Virus record (IMG/VR): IMGVR_UViG_2778261687_000002
Location: 1 to 6,370 of that record
From: a virus
Lineage: Duplodnaviria > Heunggongvirae > Uroviricota > Caudoviricetes
Length of the DNA: 6,370 nt
Strand: one strand, 5' to 3'
The translations under genes were made by a program, and so were the position numbers. The notes under the pieces were generated by a model. The model had not been told where the DNA came from, made no database searches, and worked only from the letters and a program-made list of their open reading frames with translations. Below, in pieces: positions 1 to 6,370 of the stretch; within the stretch, counting starts at the first letter, position 1, and the number at the start of each line of letters is the position of its first letter.

Positions 1-77
1 TGTTTTTGTCATGTGAGTCACCTCTGACTGAGAGTTTACTCACTTAGCCGCGTGTCCACTATTGCTGGGTAAGATCA
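1..77 (-). mobile_element. IS3-type insertion sequence, left end only (terminal inverted repeat, leader, first four codons of orfA); the element continues beyond the window start
   Basis: Reverse complement of 1..77 reads TGATCTTACCCAGCAATAGTGGACACGCGGCTAAGTGAGTAAACTCTCAGTCAGAGGTGACTCACATGACAAAAACA, which I recognise from memory as the IS3 left terminus (TG...CA-type end), followed by a GAGGTGA ribosome-binding site and ATG ACA AAA ACA (MTKT, the OrfA/InsE start) at 12..1 on the minus strand. Not verified by search. Confidence 0.75.
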
Positions 78-410
78 TGGATCGTACTTTAGGATATTTG
101 GGAAGTAGAATTGCTGTGAGCCATATGCGTCATACACAGCCATTGAATGACCTTCAACAGTTACAAATTTCGCAATTTGCCCGTTGTATACTGGATACCC
201 TCCAGCATTGATAACGATAGGCTGTGCAACAGGTATGTGCGTTCCATTTTCGTTTTCCAGATAAACCTGAATCTGGTTTTCAGGATTTACCGGGTCCGTG
301 TCAATTTTACCGATATAAATTTTGCCATTGGCTACGGCTTTAAAAGAACGAGCCATAGTGAAGAGTTGCGAAGGCATGCTTACTACAACATTAGCTGTAA
401 TGTCTGTCAT
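75..410 (-). pseudogene. P22-like tailspike, N-terminal head-binding domain only (111 aa), truncated by the IS3 end
   Basis: Translation [42 protein letters not shown]...LKYDP closely matches the P22 gp9 head-binding domain as I recall it. GGAG lies 8 nt upstream of the ATG at 410. The TGA stop at 77..75 is formed by the first three bases of the IS3 terminus. A full tailspike is about 650-700 aa. Confidence 0.85.
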
Positions 411-468
411 TTAATTTGCTCCAGATACAAGGAATCACCGAAGCATGGCTACGGTGAATTTTGGGCAT

Positions 469-491
469 AAAAAAACCCAGCCGAAGCTGGG
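469..491 (-). terminator. Rho-independent terminator (minus strand) upstream of the tailspike start
   Basis: Minus strand reads CCCAGC-TTCG-GCTGGG followed by TTTTTTT: a 6-7 bp GC-rich stem, tetraloop and U-tract. Plus-strand stem is 476..491 with the A-run at 469..475. Confidence 0.6.
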
Positions 492-543
492 TCGTTGCGT
501 TGGTTATCTGTCAGTAGTTATGTACTGGCTGAAGGATTTGTAC

Positions 544-574
544 AAAAAAACCACCTGACGGTGGGTTAATTTTT
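544..574 (-). terminator. Second hairpin terminator, mainly minus-strand, possibly bidirectional
   Basis: Stem CCACC (551..555), loop TGAC, stem GGTGG (560..564). Flanked by AAAAAAA (544..550), which gives a 7-U tract on the minus strand, and by GTTAATTTTT on the plus strand. The stem is short (5 bp). Confidence 0.45.
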
Positions 575-592
575 GCATTTACCTGGGCCATA

Positions 593-621
593 TTGACTAC
601 TTATAAAATGAGATCAATATT
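593..621 (+). promoter_or_regulatory. Candidate sigma70 promoter for the YjzC-like gene
   Basis: TTGACT at 593..598, a 17 nt spacer, then AATATT at 616..621 (4/6 match to TATAAT), about 35 nt upstream of the ATG at 658. Pattern match only. Confidence 0.25.
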
Positions 622-657
622 TAATCGCCCAATAACGGGTGTATGTTGAGGTATATC

Positions 658-837
658 ATGGCGAAAAAACCAGGTGAAAACACAGGAAAAAACGGCGGAA
701 TATACCAAGAAGTTGGCCCACGCGGCGGTAAGAAAGACAATTTTGCCACCGTCAAGGACAACGAAAGGCTTCCACCAACAACAAAGCCAGGTCATGGCTG
801 GGTATTGGATAAGCGAACTCCAGACAGCAAAAAGTAA
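658..837 (+). CDS. YjzC-like small protein (59 aa), accessory gene
   Basis: MAKKPGENTGKNGGIYQEVGPRGGKKDNFATVKDNERLPPTTKPGHGWVLDKRTPDSKK fits the YjzC-like small-protein pattern as I recall it (KPGE..G.Y.EVGPRGG...TV.....LPPT.KPG..W). GAGGT lies 5 nt upstream of the ATG at 658. The ORF-track start at 643 has no ribosome-binding site. A terminator follows directly. Confidence 0.7.
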   Translation: MAKKPGENTGKNGGIYQEVGPRGGKKDNFATVKDNERLPPTTKPGHGWVLDKRTPDSKK

Positions 838-843
838 TAATCA

Positions 844-866
844 AGCCGGTTCACTCCGGCTTTTTG
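844..866 (+). terminator. Rho-independent terminator of the YjzC-like gene
   Basis: AGCCGG-TTCACT-CCGGCT followed by TTTT, starting 7 nt after the TAA stop. It overlaps the last four codons of the convergent minus-strand gene. Confidence 0.55.
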
Positions 867-1216
867 ATATGTCGCTCGCAGAACTCAACAAGCCTGCTCA
901 TTAAGTAGCAGTAAGTCTCGTTGGCTCTTCCTGGTTCAACATCAACACCTACCCTTGAGCAGATATCGAATGCCATGTGAGCGCACTCATGGGCAATAGT
1001 AGATAGTTTGCCATTGAACACGCCTATCACATGCAAAACACCATTCTCGCTACTCATTGTATGAGACGCTCCGTTGGCGTCCGAGTCATGCACGTCAACG
1101 CCAAGTTTTTGATGCAGGCGTTGCCATTCTGGAAAGTCTCTACAAAACACAATTGTACCGCTCTCAAAGAGCGGAACGAGCATCTTTGGTACGTTTCCAA
1201 TGTTAACTTTTTTCAT
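851..1216 (-). CDS. HExxH zinc-metallopeptidase-like protein (121 aa), ImmA/IrrE- or SprT-like by motif only
   Basis: Intact 121-codon ORF containing [15 protein letters not shown], a hydrophobic-xx-HExxH-hydrophobic zincin motif, with downstream acidic residues ([10 protein letters not shown]). No strong ribosome-binding site (AGGA 4 nt before the ATG). Family assignment is from the motif alone. Confidence 0.55.
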
Positions 1217-1246
1217 GGTATCCTGCGCAAAACTAAGGAGGTTGGT

Positions 1247-1741
1247 GTGTCTGATTCTATGAGTTACGCTGTGCTAGTTGCCGCAACTCTATTTATGGGG
1301 ATAGGGTTGCAGATTGCGTGGTTCTTTTTTTCTAGTTTTATTAAACGCAAAAGAATTGAATCAAGGATATCTGAGATTTCTATTGCTATAGGGAAAAATG
1401 CTGAAAATCCAGAGAATGAGGCCTGCGCACTGAATTACCTTAAAGAAAAGTTTTCCCCTGAAAAATTTGAAAATAGAATTACTGATGCTCTTGGATTGGT
1501 AATATCAGTAATTCATATGCCACTAAGTTTGCTGATAACAGTGTGGTACTTCGCCATGATCGCCGGAAGAATATTTGGTTTCATGAATATAGAGCCTGTA
1601 GTTCTTTGGGTTCCAATGATACTGCAACTGTTGTTAAGCGTTGCTATCTTTATTTTTTCTGTTTTTATAAAAATTGTCTTTGGAAGATACCCCGGAGAAG
1701 CTAAGGGATTTAATAAAGAATTCATAAAAACTATAAAATAA
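1247..1741 (+). CDS. AT-rich small inner-membrane protein (about 164 aa, three predicted transmembrane helices), in the sieA-equivalent position
   Basis: Strong ribosome-binding site TAAGGAGG at 1234..1241, 5 nt before an in-frame GTG at 1247 (the ATG at 1259 is an alternative start). Hydrophobic segments [45 protein letters not shown] and [31 protein letters not shown] content is visibly lower (about 35%) than the flanks. The ORF-track N-terminal extension from 1031 lies upstream of the ribosome-binding site and overlaps the HExxH gene. Confidence 0.7.
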
Positions 1742-1763
1742 ATGCCGTCCTTGGCTTACAGTG

Positions 1764-2912
1764 CTACTGCCGGGTCGCTTCGTTAGCTAAGAGCGGGCGC
1801 ACGGCAGTAGCAGCCTGATTTAGCGCTCTTTCATAAGCTGGCGTTCCAGCTTTAGTGTTTGCCAGACGTAAGAGCGCATTCCTTGCTGCTTTGGACTCAT
1901 ACAAACGCATCATTGCACCAAAACCAGCCTCAAGCCCCATTGATACTCCAAGAGTCGCAGTTGCGCCAATCGTCCTTATCCTGTTGGCTTGTGATTGCCC
2001 CGTCTGAGTTACTACATTTGCGGTGTCTGACCTTGCTGTTTGCTGTAGAACTTCATGAAGAGCATCAAGCTCTTTCATGTGCTTTCCAGAAAAAATAGTG
2101 TTGTAAATTTCACCGCCTGACTGAGATTTAAGCTTATTAACTTCAGTGATGAACTTGGCTGGAGAGTCACCGGCCTTTTCCGCTATTTTGCTGACGTAAG
2201 CTGCACGCATAGCATCTTTCCCTTTATCATCCAATGCGCTCCAGATTCGTTTCACGTCAGATGGTTTTCTGCTTAATACAACGGTATTTATAAGTTCAGG
2301 ACTGGCTTCACTGCTTGCCTTGTTGAGCTTGTTAGCAATGTTTTTATTAAGCACCTTATTATAAACGTTTGCATAATCGGAGTTTGCTTTAAGGTATTTT
2401 GCTGCGTCTGATGCACCAAGGTTTTTTGCAACTGCGTTACGAAGATCTTTTGACATTGCATTCTCTACCATATTGGTAGCTGCTTTTGCCTGGTTTGGGA
2501 AGACCATAGCATCTCCCTGAACATTAGATCTAAATGCTGTTCTGTGCTGACGCAAGAGATCAAACGTAACATCCAAATCAGTTGCAGGGTTTGCTAATTC
2601 TTCGCGTAGGTTACGCAAGGATGTAAGCAGACTTTGATTGGCAGACGTCCCAAGCCGTTCCTGTCTTGCGATCGCTGTATTCAGAGCATTCATGGTATTT
2701 GTGGTATCAACTGCGGCATTACCCATTTTATTGGTGACGTCATTGATAACAGCGCCAGCGGCATCCTTCCGCCCCCTTAACGTGGTGGTCAGAGATTTCA
2801 CCACATCATCAGGGTTGTACTCACCAAAACGGTCAAAATAATTGCTTACCAGCTTACTACGCGTTGCATATTGCTCCGCTCGCTTTGAGCCTGTCCCGAG
2901 CAAAGCCCCCTC
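1764..2912 (-). CDS. Phage virion/ejection-protein-like C-terminal region (Ala/Asn/Lys-rich; possibly P22 gp16-like by position), lacking its own start and fused in frame to the ninG fragment
   Basis: Long open frame with low-complexity, helical composition typical of phage injection or tail-associated proteins. No ATG with a ribosome-binding site; the ORF-track start at 2903 is a TTG inside a continuous frame that stays open up to 3143. The gp16-like assignment rests on synteny (next to the sieA-like gene and tailspike), not on recalled sequence identity. Confidence 0.45.
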
Positions 2913-3107
2913 GGCATCCCACTGAGCAGACGTGAGCGTTCCGCACGAGATACATGGTAAGTCGCGGTCTCTTTCTCTGATGAAGGCGTTTACGGCTTGT
3001 TGGGCTTGTTTAATCCAGTAACTGCGGGGCTTTAAGGCGAGTTTTCGAATCTTAAGTTTATCTTTCTGTTTCTGCTCCTCTCGTCGCCGTTTCTTCTCTG
3101 CTGCTTT
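2913..3107 (-). pseudogene. ninG: ninG (Rap-like) internal fragment, in frame with the downstream virion-protein-like ORF
   Basis: The same minus-strand frame translates as [65 protein letters not shown], matching lambda NinG as I recall it. Homology stops at ...AQWDA (lambda continues GHYR...) and there is a TGA just upstream at 3146..3144. Both N- and C-terminal parts of NinG are missing. Confidence 0.6.
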
Positions 3108-3421
3108 TCCCGATAGAGCATGATGATTGAGTCTGCGTCCTGCTCAATGCTTCCTGAATCACGCAAATCTGCGTTTGTCGGGCGTTTGTTTGGTCGCTTC
3201 TCAACATCGCGCGAAAGCTGACTCAGGGAGATAACAGGCGTTTTCAGGTCTTTCGCCATCGCCTTCAGGCTTCCTGAGATGTGAGCAATTGCGAGGTCGT
3301 TGCGGTCTGCTTTCGGCTTCTCAATCAGGCCAAGATAATCCGCCATGATGAGTGACAGGTTTGGATTTTCCTGTTTGTGCCGTTCTGCGATTGAGCGTAT
3401 TTCTTCGACCGATACCCAATG
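3032..3421 (-). pseudogene. DnaB-family replicative helicase, C-terminal fragment (P22 gene 12 / lambda P-region type)
   Basis: Minus-strand frame reads ...[33 protein letters not shown]...[63 protein letters not shown], which is the DnaB C-terminal signature region. The N-terminal roughly 300 aa (Walker motifs) are absent. After LYRE the frame diverges into the ninG sequence read out of frame ([24 protein letters not shown], stop). The ORF-track start at 3346 is an internal Met. Confidence 0.7.
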
Positions 3422-3571
3422 TCCGATAGCTCCCTGTGTGCATCCAACTGCCTTAAGCCTGAAGAAATGTTTCCTGTAATGGAAGATGGGAAATATGTCG
3501 ATAAATGGGCAATACGAACGACGGCAATGATTGCCAGAGAACTTGGTAAACAGAATAACAAGGCTGCCTGA
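3419..3571 (+). CDS. Small plus-strand ORF (50 aa from the ATG at 3419; 34 aa from the ATG at 3467), possibly the 3' remnant of a truncated gene
   Basis: [50 protein letters not shown]. No convincing ribosome-binding site. The TGA stop (3569..3571) sits in the loop of the hairpin terminator that follows. Below the ORF-track size cut-off. Confidence 0.25.
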
Positions 3572-3589
3572 TGGTGGCCTTTATTTTTT
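3562..3589 (+). terminator. Candidate rho-independent terminator (plus strand)
   Basis: GGCTGCC-TGAT-GGTGGCC (7 bp stem with two G:U pairs) followed by TTTATTTTTT. Confidence 0.4.
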
Positions 3590-3630
3590 GGCCGTAAATA
3601 ATTTCATGCTTATTACAATCAAGGGGATAT

Positions 3631-3996
3631 ATGGAAGAACAAGCAAACAAGATTCTCGTAGAACTACTGCAAAAAGCCAGTAATGGAATAGACGCGGCTG
3701 TTTCATTTAGCCAGGCACAGATTCCTGATGTCATCCATCAGCTTTTGATGTGGCACGCCGTATCATCAGCTGGAATTCAGGCTATCTGTGTATTGGTGAT
3801 TATAGCGTGTGTTTATCTGATGATTTTTGCATGGAATAAAGGAGATGATGCGGATGTTGTTCTTTTATCGCTACTTGTAACATCAGGAATAGCGATTACT
3901 TCTATTGTTGTTTTCTTCAATTATTTCGACTGGCTGAAAATCTGGCTTGCTCCAAAACTTTACCTTATCGAATATGCAGCATCATTGGTTAAGTAA
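3631..3996 (+). CDS. Small membrane protein (121 aa, two predicted transmembrane helices), unknown function; superinfection-exclusion or holin-like candidate
   Basis: Ribosome-binding site AGGGG 4 nt before the ATG. Soluble N-terminal roughly 45 aa, then hydrophobic helices GIQAICVLVIIACVYLMIFAW and VVLLSLLVTSGIAITSIVVFFNYF. Followed by a clean terminator. Moderately AT-rich. Confidence 0.65.
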   Translation: MEEQANKILVELLQKASNGIDAAVSFSQAQIPDVIHQLLMWHAVSSAGIQAICVLVIIACVYLMIFAWNKGDDADVVLLSLLVTSGIAITSIVVFFNYFDWLKIWLAPKLYLIEYAASLVK

Positions 3997-4000
3997 TTTC

Positions 4001-4026
4001 AGGCCGCATAGTCGGCCTTCATTTTT
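4001..4026 (+). terminator. Rho-independent terminator of the 121-aa membrane protein gene
   Basis: AGGCCG-CATAGT-CGGCCT (6 bp stem) followed by TCATTTTT, starting 5 nt after the TAA stop. Confidence 0.6.
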
Positions 4027-4089
4027 GGCATAAACAACAGAATAAACACTGCACTGTGTATTCATTCCAACGAGTGAATATCTGAGGTT

Positions 4090-4293
4090 TTGAAACGCAC
4101 TGGCTATAGCAAGGCGTGGGTATATGCTCTGATGAGCCGAGGACAATTCCCTCAATCAGTCAAGATTGGTGCTCGCGCAATAGCTTTTATTGAAAGCGAG
4201 ATCGATGACTGGATCGATCAACGTATAGCCGAATCGCGTAGTAACAAAGAACAGAAACAAACCGGATACAAACAATACGTTATTAGGTATTAA
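4090..4293 (+). CDS. alpA: AlpA/Vis-family winged-helix DNA-binding protein (prophage regulatory protein / excisionase-like), apparently N-terminally shortened
   Basis: (ISEV)LKRTGYSKAWVYALMSRGQFPQSVKIGARAIAFIESEIDDWI matches the AlpA/P4 Vis pattern (..EV...TGLSRSTIY.L...G.FP.PVK.G.R.V.W...E...W). The only in-frame start after the TGA at 4075..4077 is the TTG at 4090; the usual leading residues of the family are missing. Confidence 0.6.
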   Translation: MKRTGYSKAWVYALMSRGQFPQSVKIGARAIAFIESEIDDWIDQRIAESRSNKEQKQTGYKQYVIRY

Positions 4294-4295
4294 GA

Positions 4296-4487
4296 ATGCA
4301 GTTGACCCCCACCAATCAAAAGCTGAACGTAACCCATGTTGATTTTGAGACCTTCGCGGAACTGATTAGATCAGATCCACAAAAGGTAAGCACCAGCACC
4401 TGGGTTTATGATGTGAAATCCACCAACGGTGGAAAAGCTATCGGCATTGTCTCTGGCGATGATTACTTAGTAATCGATCTGATTTAA
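4296..4487 (+). CDS. Hypothetical small protein (63 aa), translationally coupled to the alpA-like gene
   Basis: AGGT ribosome-binding site 7 nt before the ATG, which is 2 nt after the alpA-like stop. No recognisable motif. Confidence 0.5.
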   Translation: MQLTPTNQKLNVTHVDFETFAELIRSDPQKVSTSTWVYDVKSTNGGKAIGIVSGDDYLVIDLI

Positions 4488-4513
4488 TCACACAAAAATT
4501 GTAGAGTGATTTG

Positions 4514-4532
4514 GGAAGACAGGAAGTCTTCC
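4514..4532. promoter_or_regulatory. Perfect 7 bp inverted repeat with 5 nt spacer (GGAAGAC-AGGAA-GTCTTCC); candidate operator or weak terminator
   Basis: Seen directly in the intergenic region between the 63-aa ORF and the HTH gene, about 40 bp upstream of the ATG at 4570. No clean U-tract follows. Confidence 0.35.
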
Positions 4533-4569
4533 TCCGTATTGCATTTTGGTACAACAGTAAGGGAATAAA

Positions 4570-4764
4570 ATGATTAATTATCTGACCGCTAAAGACGCAG
4601 CAGAATATCTTGGTGTCTGTCTATCACGCTTCTATCAGTTAAAGCGATATATCCCCAGCTTTCCCCCCTATGTAAATCAGACCATCAATGGACGCAAGCG
4701 CAGAGTGTGGCTTGCCTCCAGCCTTGATCAATTTGCCGACAGATTTCTGGGGGGACGAAAATGA
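4570..4764 (+). CDS. Excisionase/AlpA-type helix-turn-helix (HTH_17-like) DNA-binding protein, 64 aa
   Basis: Ribosome-binding site AAGGGA 5 nt before the ATG. LTAKDAAEYLGVCLSRFYQLKR...GRKRRVWLASSLDQFADRF follows the Xis/AlpA winged-helix pattern (LT.keaAeyLGvs..t.Y.l......P.....G.r.rW....ld.w). Confidence 0.65.
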   Translation: MINYLTAKDAAEYLGVCLSRFYQLKRYIPSFPPYVNQTINGRKRRVWLASSLDQFADRFLGGRK

Positions 4765-5147
4765 GCACTCTTACACGTACTCAGGTCGCCGCAAATATAC
4801 GCGATAGCCTACTAAGTGGCAGGAAGCTTACCCCAAAGGAGTTTGATGACATATTAAGGAAAGCAGGAAATCACGAACGTAGTCGCGTTTTAACGCTGTT
4901 ACGCAACGATTGGGGAATTCCTGTTGAACAGTGTAAAACAGGGGCGTATCACGTCACAGAACGCAACTTAGAAGCATACCACAGCGATAAAGACGAAACA
5001 TTGAAGCTCTGGAGGACGAACGCCAGATATGTAAAGACATTGCGTAAGGTAAACATAACGTTGTCGTTGTTGCGTGGGCTGGTGGGCAAAGTGCCTGAAG
5101 ACACGCTTAGAACTATTTACAAGGGTATTGAAACCAAATACCTGTGA
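4761..5147 (+). CDS. Hypothetical protein (128 aa), translationally coupled (ATGA overlap) to the upstream HTH gene
   Basis: Start ATG overlaps the upstream stop (ATGA at 4761..4764). GGGGGA ribosome-binding site 5 nt upstream. No motif recognised. Confidence 0.6.
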   Translation: MSTLTRTQVAANIRDSLLSGRKLTPKEFDDILRKAGNHERSRVLTLLRNDWGIPVEQCKTGAYHVTERNLEAYHSDKDETLKLWRTNARYVKTLRKVNITLSLLRGLVGKVPEDTLRTIYKGIETKYL

Positions 5148-5159
5148 TTGACAAAGTAG

Positions 5160-5186
5160 AAAGCCGACTTTGCGAGAGTCGGCTTT
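5160..5186 (+). terminator. Strong hairpin (10 bp stem AAAGCCGACT / AGTCGGCTTT, 7 nt loop) just after the 128-aa ORF; candidate terminator, possibly bidirectional
   Basis: Perfect 10 bp stem seen directly. The U-tract is only 3 nt, contributed by the stem arm. A TTGACA hexamer at 5148..5153 immediately precedes it. Confidence 0.45.
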
Positions 5187-5215
5187 GAATCAATTGAAAT
5201 ATATGAATTTTACAC

Positions 5216-6268
5216 ATGGAATTATACGATAAAGACGCGAGTCTATCCACAAAATCACAAGCCGTAATCAATCGCATCAATGGTCGAACCTTAGCTTATG
5301 TGAAATCAGTTAAGTACAAACGTAATGAATTAAAGGCGGAGAATAAACGACAATCATCAAAGGCTAACCACTGCATACCACCAGCCTGGACAAAGAGGAA
5401 ATGGCGTACAATGAGGCGAGCTTTGTTTACTCTGGATGTCGAATCAACTAGTGGTATCCCCTACTCCTTTACCTTCAGACCCGTTAAGGGAACAACGCCA
5501 GAGAAATTCAACAAAGCGTTAAAGGCACTTACCAGATGGTTGACTTCGAAAGGCAATCAGTGGGTTTACGTCATGGAGTGGGCTCGACACCAGTCAGAGC
5601 CGCATGTACACGCAATAATCATGGTGAACGAAAGAAGCATTAATGGGCAAGCTGGCAAAATTGTCAGCAAATGGGTAACACTGGCAAACAATGCAATCCC
5701 ATCAAATGTTCCTCCTCAGTGGGATCTAGATTTGAAAGGTCAGCAATATTCAGAGCCTACAAAGTGTATAGGTAAACAGATTGATTACATGGCAAAGCCC
5801 GAAACTAAGTTAAATGACTTTAATAGAGAGGCGAGCAAGAGCCTATATGATTGGTCAGATGCCACCGTTTGGGGTTATTCGAATGGCTGGGCGCGGCATG
5901 AGATAAAAAAAGAAACACTTTCTATCACTGGCTTTCATGCTGTAAGACGCATACTAAAAGCCATTCAGGCATCAAGGAAAGACAACTACAAAGTTAAGCG
6001 ACAGATACAGCGTACATTGAAACGACAAGACATAAATCGCTCACCAATCACCCCATTCCAAGCACCGTTAATTAGCAAACACGATTGGGATTTATCAGTG
6101 ATAGCGGTCACCAAAGAGGCAGAGACAGAGCGCAGGGAGTTACTATCCTCACAGATAATAAACTCGAACAAAGTACAAACCTACCCGCTGTTAAGGATGT
6201 TAAGAAAAGCACGAGTGAGAGCATCAAGAGCCAGAAGAGAAAGCGGAGGTTATGACCTTTACTACTAG
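5216..6268 (+). CDS. Putative HUH-type rolling-circle replication initiator (Rep), 350 aa; compare inovirus gene II-like or CP4-57 YfjI-like proteins found next to alpA
   Basis: Long ORF with motif I-like FTLD (aa 71-74), HUH motif EPHVHAIIMV (aa 128-137) and a YxxK tyrosine motif QIDYMAKPETK (aa 188-198), each about 59 aa apart, with a basic C-terminal tail. No ribosome-binding site before the ATG at 5216, so the start is uncertain. Function inferred from motifs only. Confidence 0.5.
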   Translation: MELYDKDASLSTKSQAVINRINGRTLAYVKSVKYKRNELKAENKRQSSKANHCIPPAWTKRKWRTMRRALFTLDVESTSGIPYSFTFRPVKGTTPEKFNKALKALTRWLTSKGNQWVYVMEWARHQSEPHVHAIIMVNERSINGQAGKIVSKWVTLANNAIPSNVPPQWDLDLKGQQYSEPTKCIGKQIDYMAKPETKLNDFNREASKSLYDWSDATVWGYSNGWARHEIKKETLSITGFHAVRRILKAIQASRKDNYKVKRQIQRTLKRQDINRSPITPFQAPLISKHDWDLSVIAVTKEAETERRELLSSQIINSNKVQTYPLLRMLRKARVRASRARRESGGYDLYY

Positions 6269-6370
6269 TAGTGACAGATCGTGACAAGGCTGTGGCTTTG
6301 TTGAATAAATCAGATTTCGGGTAAGTCTCCCCCGTAGCGGGTTGTGTTTTCAGGCAATACGCACGCTTTC

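Follow-up and report, generated by a model that had tools for sequence, protein, structure and literature searches.

A predicted HUH replication initiator in a decayed argW island of Escherichia coli and its relatives in inoviruses and small Klebsiella plasmids

Results

The rep gene and its product

The stretch of DNA analyzed here, hereafter called the window, comprises 6,370 nucleotides (positions 1 to 6,370 of IMG/VR virus record IMGVR_UViG_2778261687_000002) and carries near its right-hand end an open reading frame (ORF) of 350 codons, named rep in this work, which a preliminary description of the same sequence had correctly delimited and had read as a rolling-circle replication protein (Rep) of the HUH type. 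The window DNA belongs to an island of Escherichia coli located at argW (tRNA-Arg) between yfdC and dsdC, with window positions 4079-6293 representing the conserved block. In this work the protein, its relatives, and the intact forms of the island are described, and we propose that rep encodes the replication initiator of an integrating island, a reading to which, taken as a whole, we assign a probability of about 0.65. The coordinates of all features are given in Table 1.

The rep product carries three motifs, the second and third of which (the HUH motif II and the tyrosine motif III) had been recognized in the preliminary description. Alignment of 21 full-length relatives with about 20% identity left E121, P129, H130, H132, W153, Q177, Y191, and K194 as the sole invariant columns, both histidines of motif II and the tyrosine of motif III being among them. 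A second alignment across island, plasmid, and inovirus Reps retained the same catalytic residues as invariant together with R64, G80, R107, W122, and W225, and the residues of motifs II and III were unchanged in relatives at 14-27% identity. H130-V-H132 sits on a predicted strand (130-137), and the acidic residue E121 is a candidate for the third metal ligand. The earlier placement of motif I at FTLD was not borne out, since this column is unconserved and lies where a predicted helix ends; the true motif I is YSFTF, for which the family consensus is YxxTLT with T86 nearly invariant. The supposed even spacing of 59 aa between the motifs fell with it: T86 and H130 are 44 aa apart, and H132 and Y191 are 59 aa apart. 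The order of motif I, then HUH, then tyrosine is that of the Rep class and not that of relaxases; in classical relaxases the tyrosine precedes the HUH motif. Judged from these alignments, the signature in rep exceeds chance.

Profile searches and structure prediction, both of which had been proposed as checks, came out in favor of an HUH protein. Pfam REP_ORF2-G2P (PF23343) matched aa 85-146 of rep with 28.6 bits (gathering score 27.8) and was matched by all 21 aligned relatives (best E 8e-11), ten of which additionally matched Helitron_like_N, while the plasmid homologue L023 remained under the PF23343 threshold with 24.7 bits. Pfam Relaxase (MobA/VirD2; PF03432) reached 17.6 bits on aa 76-145, under its cut-off of 24.6, and was matched by one of the 21 relatives. 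Scans of Rep with NCBIfam and PADLOC gave no match, and a PDB sequence-profile search with Rep returned nothing significant. The family is small: among 1.84 billion representative proteins searched with a profile, 28 reached E <= 1e-3. An AlphaFold model built on the 21-sequence alignment gave a core with a predicted local distance difference test (pLDDT) score of about 90, whereas a 6-sequence alignment had reached a pLDDT of 38 only. The best fold matches of this core were HUH nucleases (SIRV1 Rep, parvovirus NS1, Helraiser, and RepB), and among the matches in BFVD were initiators of microviruses, proteins with an ORF2/G2P domain, and Inovirus Gp2. We regard the assignment of the rep product as an HUH-Rep as well supported; from its motifs it is predicted to nick ssDNA (single-stranded DNA) in a metal-dependent reaction with a covalent 5'-phosphotyrosine intermediate. 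Little of this is new at the protein level: the Pfam family exists, and RefSeq product names already read "replication protein" or "rolling circle replication-associated protein".

The 20 nt preceding the ATG of rep (gaaatatatgaattttacac) contain no purine run resembling a Shine-Dalgarno sequence, in agreement with the preliminary description, which had noted the lack of a ribosome-binding site. PGAP calls for rep vary between 215 aa (starting at Met136), 285 aa (Met66), and 350 aa (L001-L004, L012, and L013). The Met66 start retains all three motifs and the Met136 start drops motifs I and II, so that the automated 215-aa annotation conceals the catalytic domain. PHROG 30534, which has no assigned function and covers aa 136-350 of rep only, is built on the truncated Met136-type form too. 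The full 350-codon frame was open in all ten rep copies examined and dN/dS was 0.2-0.5 overall and about 0.13-0.4 over the first 60 codons, values that are based on just 5-30 substitutions per pair; by these measures the gene is maintained. An N-terminal M-x-x-Y is common to rep and to its plasmid and other relatives, and Met1 (position 5216) is favored as the start despite the absent ribosome-binding site.

Table 1. Features of rep, the window, and the loci compared with it (aa, residues of the 350-aa rep product where a residue range is given)
Feature	Locus	Position	Strand	Remarks
rep	window	5216-6268	+	ATG start, 350 aa; single-tyrosine HUH rolling-circle Rep
Catalytic domain of rep	window	about aa 55-235
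C-terminal helical region of rep	window	aa 236-350
FTLD	window	5426-5437 (aa 71-74)	+	column unconserved in both alignments; end of predicted helix 60-72
Motif I, YSFTF	window	5462-5476 (aa 83-87)	+	from alignment of 21 relatives; predicted beta-strand 81-87
E121	window	5576-5578	+	acidic, 9 aa before HUH motif; invariant in both alignments
Motif II, EPHVHAIIMV	window	5597-5626 (aa 128-137)	+	H130 and H132 at 5603-5611
Q177	window	5744-5746	+	between motifs II and III; invariant in both alignments
Motif III, IDYMAKPETK	window	5780-5809 (aa 189-198)	+	Y191 at 5786-5788, K194 at 5795-5797 (YxxK)
Hairpin	window	5160-5186		10-bp, GC-rich, right after h128 stop
h128	window	4761-5147	+	128 aa; overlaps HTH64 by 4 nt; syntenic homologues on plasmids
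HTH64	window	4570-4764	+	HTH_17, 22.7 bits (threshold 27); syntenic homologues on plasmids
h63	window	4296-4487	+	63 aa; integration/regulation module of island; absent from plasmids
alpA remnant	window	4079-4293	+	AlpA ORF 4090-4293; PF05930, E 8e-15
IS903-type (IS5-family) end	window	6294-6370		77 nt, 100% identical to IS903B end in L004; 25 nt past rep stop
IS3 end	window	1-77		100% identical to IS3 end as in L001 and L003
Tailspike, head-binding domain only	window	75-410	-	111 aa; PF09008, E 2e-65
phrog_1365 gene	window	851-1216	-
Hydrophobic ORF	window	1031-1741	+	236 aa; related genomes (H6, H8) have superinfection exclusion protein A annotated at this position
DNA-transfer/injection protein, N-terminally truncated	window	1764-2903	-	C-terminal 379 aa; phrog_770 positions 267-663
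DnaB fragment, pseudogene remnant	window	3032-3346	-	104 aa, C-terminal domain only; PF03796, E 8e-33
phrog_3054 gene	window	3631-3996	+	121 aa, membrane-like; followed by terminator-like hairpin 4001-4018
Conserved block (candidate origin)	L012	10311-10395
Conserved block (candidate origin)	L005	12882-12960
Conserved block (candidate origin)	L023	about 3054-3135
Conserved block (candidate origin)	L024	about 1502-1585
Conserved block (candidate origin)	L025	about 5194-5110	-
Cargo	L012	10826-13306		SIR2-family protein
Cargo	L003	15547-19173		GapS6a/b
Cargo	L001	16139-18682		reverse transcriptase and PRTase-like protein
Cargo	L002			HNH endonuclease
Cargo	L005 (K. pneumoniae)	11327-12766		HNH_2/PDC-M68A-like protein
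Cargo	L026	1930-3636		AIPR
Cargo	L004, L013			two large uncharacterized proteins, 329 and 824 aa; no Pfam or PADLOC match

The argW island in E. coli and K. pneumoniae

The intact island, as represented by E. coli 600468 (L012; NZ_CP025849.1), begins at the tRNA-Arg gene and carries first the genes for a 428-aa tyrosine integrase (Int; domains Arm-DNA-bind_3, Phage_int_M, and Phage_integrase), h251, AlpA, h63, a small helix-turn-helix (HTH) protein termed HTH64, and h128. Behind h128 comes rep, which is separated from the cargo by a non-coding stretch of about 700 nt; the cargo is followed by a small minus-strand ORF and the gene for a 208-aa serine recombinase. The left attachment site, attL, lies in the 3' end of the tRNA-Arg gene, and a 24-26 bp direct repeat, TTCGATTCCTGCAGGGGACACCAT(CC), is found just beyond the recombinase gene; the repeats at both borders bound the island at roughly 9.5-11 kb. 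The guess that rep belongs to an integrative element thus holds for the intact copies, with their integrase and attachment repeats, and the statement that the window itself has no integrase also stands. The same architecture occurs at the same site in Klebsiella pneumoniae, where the Rep is 50% identical to that of E. coli.

Searching 5426 complete E. coli genomes identified a rep segment in 542 (~10%), chromosomal in all of them, with at least 80% of rep present in 221. The argW site is occupied in tandem in both orders, an IntS prophage followed by the island (L001 and L002) or the island followed by an IntS prophage (L032, 3201-3245), which indicates independent integration of the island and of the prophage at the same att core. 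Between rep and the serine recombinase, the content of the cargo slot differs by strain and often includes defense-type genes (Table 1); the two large cargo proteins of L004 and L013 are possible new defense candidates. No tra or trb genes were present in L004, L005, or L012, scans of the Pfam/PHROG type detected no primase, capsid, terminase, coat, assembly, or redirecting gene in the island, and genes for ssDNA-binding, coat, and gpI/Zot proteins were absent from both the island and the window.

Relatives of Rep in inoviruses and small Klebsiella plasmids

Three of the most distant Rep relatives (L009-L011) are encoded on metagenomic inovirus contigs of 4.5-6.2 kb, with identities of 18-22% by local BLASTP and 14-16% in the multiple alignment. 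Their neighbors on these contigs are a morphogenesis protein resembling M13 protein I (E 7e-129), an ssDNA-binding protein that is gpV-like, a major coat protein, and Zot-like proteins. A tblastn search of 50,697 phage records found no Rep homologue. Closer relatives, with 24-29% identity, were found on circular Klebsiella plasmids of 5.3-6.3 kb, such as NZ_AP022186.1 (5,747 bp), NZ_CP073059.1 (5,657 bp), and NZ_CP141860.1, which carry neither a name nor a type in PLSDB; of the 16 plasmid records in which a Rep homologue occurs, 14, the small ones included, are classed there as non-mobilizable. The deposited sequence of NZ_CP141860.1 (L024; 12,132 bp) consists of two copies of a 6,066-bp unit joined head to tail, with every feature repeating at that period, and this dimer is either an assembly artefact or a true multimer of a rolling-circle-type plasmid.

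The gene string of the plasmids, in which a 68-aa HTH protein, a 126-aa protein, Rep (369-378 aa), cargo, a small minus-strand ORF, and a serine recombinase follow one another, matches the right half of the island, with BLASTP identities of 43% for HTH64, 40-47% for h128, 24-29% for Rep, and 28-45% for the serine recombinase. The plasmids bear an additional MerR-like HTH gene. The small Klebsiella plasmids have no integrase, AlpA, h251, or h63. As no other recognizable replication gene was found on them, their Rep is by elimination the probable replication initiator. The island can be described as a chimera of two modules, one the backbone of a small Rep plasmid (HTH64 to the serine recombinase, with the terminator-like hairpin, candidate origin, and cargo slot), the other an integration/regulation module made up of the tyrosine integrase, h251, AlpA, and h63. 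HTH64 is the first gene of the plasmid-type backbone and may regulate the rep operon, and h128, which follows it and is a conserved partner of rep, had no match in Pfam, PHROG, or PADLOC. The preliminary description had seen alpA-like and excisionase-like genes upstream of rep. The former is indeed an alpA, albeit a damaged one in the window; the latter reached HTH_17 only below threshold and belongs to the plasmid backbone and not to the integration module.

Hairpin and candidate origin

A hairpin at the position equivalent to that between h128 and rep is present in the plasmids L023, L024, and L025, where it differs in sequence through compensatory changes and, in L024, is followed by a T-run. 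By this comparison, the hairpin of the window most likely acts in front of rep as an intrinsic terminator or attenuator. The flanks of rep had been put forward as a place to look for an origin-like hairpin with a nick site; such a role of this hairpin was rejected in view of the equivalent GC hairpin of the plasmids and the T-run, located directly behind the stop codon of the upstream gene. The DNA of the E. coli and K. pneumoniae islands is about 95-100% identical through HTH64, h128, and the hairpin and diverges directly after it (window 5160-5215 versus L005 9940-10000). This sharp recombination boundary at the hairpin, together with Reps that are only 50% identical, suggests that rep, with its origin, has been swapped as a cassette.

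Downstream of rep, three short blocks within about 90 nt recur in islands and plasmids between which the DNA can otherwise not be aligned. They are arranged as AAAGTCYTAGAAAAAAA, about 15 nt, GAWGGGCWTCC (a 5-bp hairpin), about 40 nt, and CTTATA, with a GC palindrome upstream, and the region which they define, located outside the window, is a candidate origin. The E. coli islands further contain inverted TTGACGT repeats around an AT-rich stretch (L012 10413-10528); three copies of this heptamer occur there within about 110 nt, and its enrichment across the elements is only modest, so that it represents a lead. Rfam scans of the window, of one plasmid, and of the candidate origin region gave no match. 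Cargo is located between rep and the conserved block in K. pneumoniae and after the block in E. coli, which points to two cargo insertion points.

State of the window copy

The window is a mosaic delimited by the end of an IS3 insertion sequence and that of an IS903-type element. Debris of a P22-like prophage fills positions 75-3996 and is joined to codon 8 of alpA at 4078/4079, so that the promoter and the first seven codons of this gene have been lost; a further deletion of 1 nt abolishes the usual stop codon, both with respect to alpA of L012. While int, h251, and attL are missing, h63, HTH64, h128, and rep are intact, rep differing from the copies in intact islands at ~2% of positions. The IS903 insertion separates rep from the region which holds the candidate origin in intact islands. 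The window copy of rep is thus probably an intact gene stranded in a decayed remnant.

Similar decay was observed in other genomes. Independent deletion junctions were found at positions equivalent to window 5135 (L018) and 5550 (O157:H7, genomes H58-H79, where rep adjoins a tail-needle knob gene) in addition to that at 4079 of the window, and in the chimeric ORFs P0007 and P0008 portions of rep are fused with Rad52/Rad22-like or integrase sequences. The island has been eroded repeatedly together with the neighboring P22-like prophage.

Discussion

A proposed replication initiator of an integrating island

In the model that we favor, Int, helped or activated by AlpA, would excise the island as a circle, and Rep would bind its cognate origin downstream of the rep gene. 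Rep would then nick one strand by means of Y191, with a metal ion held by H130 and H132 and probably E121 or Q177, and become covalently linked to the 5' end. A host helicase, invoked here because Rep has no helicase domain of its own, and a host polymerase would extend the 3'-OH by rolling-circle replication, after which Rep would close the displaced strand; multimers would be resolved by the serine recombinase.

Several observations weigh against this model. The rep gene is present as a fragment of less than 80% of its length in 321 of the 542 genomes which contain it, no episomal copy of the island was found among the 5426 complete E. coli genomes searched, and the attP junction expected of the excised circle was not found in metagenomes, in a collection that holds just 12 island ends. 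At the level of the gene, the PF23343 score exceeds its threshold only marginally, there is no ribosome-binding site ahead of the start at 5216, the PGAP calls disagree on where rep begins, and the dN/dS values come from few substitutions. With regard to the candidate origin, no convincing conserved hairpin was detected in it (RNAalifold returned only a 5-bp hairpin with weak covariation), and a promoter, a res site, or a single-strand origin would be equally good readings of the conserved block.

The nearest alternative concerns the reaction that Rep performs: it could act as a relaxase-like nickase at an oriT-like site and mobilize the island and the plasmids via the type IV secretion system of a helper conjugative element, either alone or beside replication. 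Rep_trans/MOB_T proteins mobilize streptococcal integrative mobilizable elements. Rolling-circle replicases acting as relaxases constitute a recognized MOB class, MOB_T (bioRxiv 10.64898/2026.01.13.699239). Such a role would accord with the weak match to the Pfam Relaxase profile, and with the fact that neither the island nor the plasmids have a known transfer function of their own, most of the plasmid records being classed as non-mobilizable; yet this match stays below the cut-off and recurs in a single relative, the HUH-then-tyrosine order is that of Reps, the nearest relatives are initiators of inoviruses and plasmids, and, as the sole candidate replication gene on the small plasmids, Rep would have to serve replication regardless, so we consider mobilization unlikely as the explanation. 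Still somewhat less credible to us is the island as a phage satellite, with ssDNA circles packaged by a helper filamentous phage, as for RS1 or TLC of Vibrio cholerae, or with DNA amplified for packaging by the P22-like phages of argW. The inovirus origin of the Rep lineage, the ssDNA produced by rolling-circle replication, the recurrent tandems with P22-like prophages, and a layout of int, alpA, replication gene, and cargo like that of Gram-negative phage-inducible chromosomal islands (PICIs; PMC10111431) all speak for it. They are countered by the lack of any coat, assembly, packaging-signal, terminase, or capsid-redirecting gene in the island, by the failure of tblastn to find a homologue among the phage records, and by the closest kin being stable double-stranded DNA (dsDNA) plasmids with a multimer-resolution recombinase. 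Moreover, the shared att site suffices to explain the tandem arrays, and the IMG/VR matches look like prophages called in isolate genomes (contigs of 40-47 kb with prophage and island) and not virion DNA.

Rep of the window might also be a functionless relic, open but unexpressed and drifting to decay. The loss of int and h251, the truncated and frameshifted alpA, the insertion sequences that close in on the remnant from both sides (IS903 25 nt after rep, the IS3 end at 1-77), the missing ribosome-binding site behind a terminator-like hairpin, and the independent deletion junctions and chimeric ORFs seen elsewhere would all be expected of a decaying gene; but the 350-codon frame is intact and close to the copies in intact islands, and an origin surviving on the far side of the insertion sequence could still be served by Rep in trans. 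We judge this improbable as an account of rep, and it concerns the state of the window copy, not the identity of the protein, so that it is compatible with a replication initiator of the integrating island. That rep encodes an HUH transposase of the IS91, Helitron, or IS200/IS605-like kind, moving by rolling-circle or single-strand transposition, is most improbable, as copies with conserved subterminal hairpins at many unrelated sites were not seen.

Comparison with known systems

The island Rep belongs to the same Pfam family, PF23343, as the initiators of ssDNA phages, namely the gpII-type proteins of some Inoviridae and the Reps of Microviridae/Spiroplasma viruses, and has in common with them the order E...HUH...Q...YxxK and a single-domain build of ~280-380 aa without helicase. 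It differs from them in that identity is 14-25% only, with no homologue detected in a cultured phage, in a longer and poorly predicted N-terminal segment (aa 7-50), and in a helical C-terminal extension which is common only to the plasmid and island proteins. Its setting also differs from that of inoviruses, as the island bears an integrase and no virion genes; an identity as an inovirus (filamentous prophage) was rejected on the lack of virion genes in island and window. With the small Klebsiella plasmids the island shares the entire backbone (HTH, 126-aa protein, hairpin, Rep, non-coding block, cargo, small ORF, and serine recombinase) at 24-47% protein identity, whereas the plasmids are autonomous circles without integrase, AlpA, or att.

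By definition, Gram-negative PICIs have int, alpA, and a primase (PMC10111431), and PIMEs have int, alpA, a replicase (repA/repC), and trbJ/trbL (10.64898/2026.01.12.698999). PICI/P4-like elements and PIMEs resemble the island in a unidirectional int, alpA, a replication module, a cargo rich in anti-phage genes, and a tRNA site (PMC10111431; 10.64898/2026.01.12.698999). PICIs and P4, however, have a primase-type replicase and capsid or packaging genes, in the place of which the island has an HUH nickase and none of the latter. Identity as a PICI or HE-PICI was rejected, there being no primase and no late genes, even though intact islands do carry int and alpA, and identity as a PIME was rejected for the absence of trbJ/trbL. 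The P4-like comparison made in the preliminary description is therefore loose, given that neither a primase nor a capsid-related gene could be detected in the island, whose nearest kin are small plasmids and inoviruses. Nor does Rep pass as a conjugative relaxase (MOB), PF03432 being under its cut-off and the motif order reversed. E. coli defense islands which carry an integrase only, and whose mobilization is unexplained, have been noted (PMC10121019), and the argW island may belong to them. A literature search on the Pfam name, on the argW/yfdC-dsdC hotspot, and on HUH and AlpA islands found no published description of the argW Rep element. We tentatively suggest, at somewhat less than even odds, that it represents an undescribed family of "integrative rolling-circle plasmids" of Enterobacteriaceae, in which an inovirus-derived HUH Rep, the HTH/h128 pair, and a resolvase are coupled to Int-AlpA, and which on induction would excise, amplify anti-phage cargo, and possibly spread as ssDNA or dsDNA with a helper phage or conjugative element.

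If this is true it would offer a mechanism by which some of the small defense islands that appear to carry an integrase only are maintained, raised in copy number, and possibly transferred (cf. PMC10121019). What is new is the context, in which one Rep-centered backbone is found in three lifestyles: inovirus genomes, autonomous Klebsiella plasmids, and the integrase/AlpA island of argW. A practical consequence is that Klebsiella plasmids without replicon type become typable by their Rep. The AICEs (integrative and conjugative elements of actinomycetes) of the pSAM2 type integrate into a tRNA gene, are about 10 kb in size, and replicate as circles after excision. The rolling-circle Rep used by pSAM2 is RepSA (PMC2440964). 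These elements belong to another host phylum and another Rep family (a weak RepSA match was obtained in one of 21 relatives), and they carry an FtsK-like transfer gene, whereas no gene for transfer was detected in the island. Conceptually the argW island is nevertheless closest to the pSAM2-type integrative elements, and if it does excise and replicate through Rep it would be their Gram-negative counterpart.

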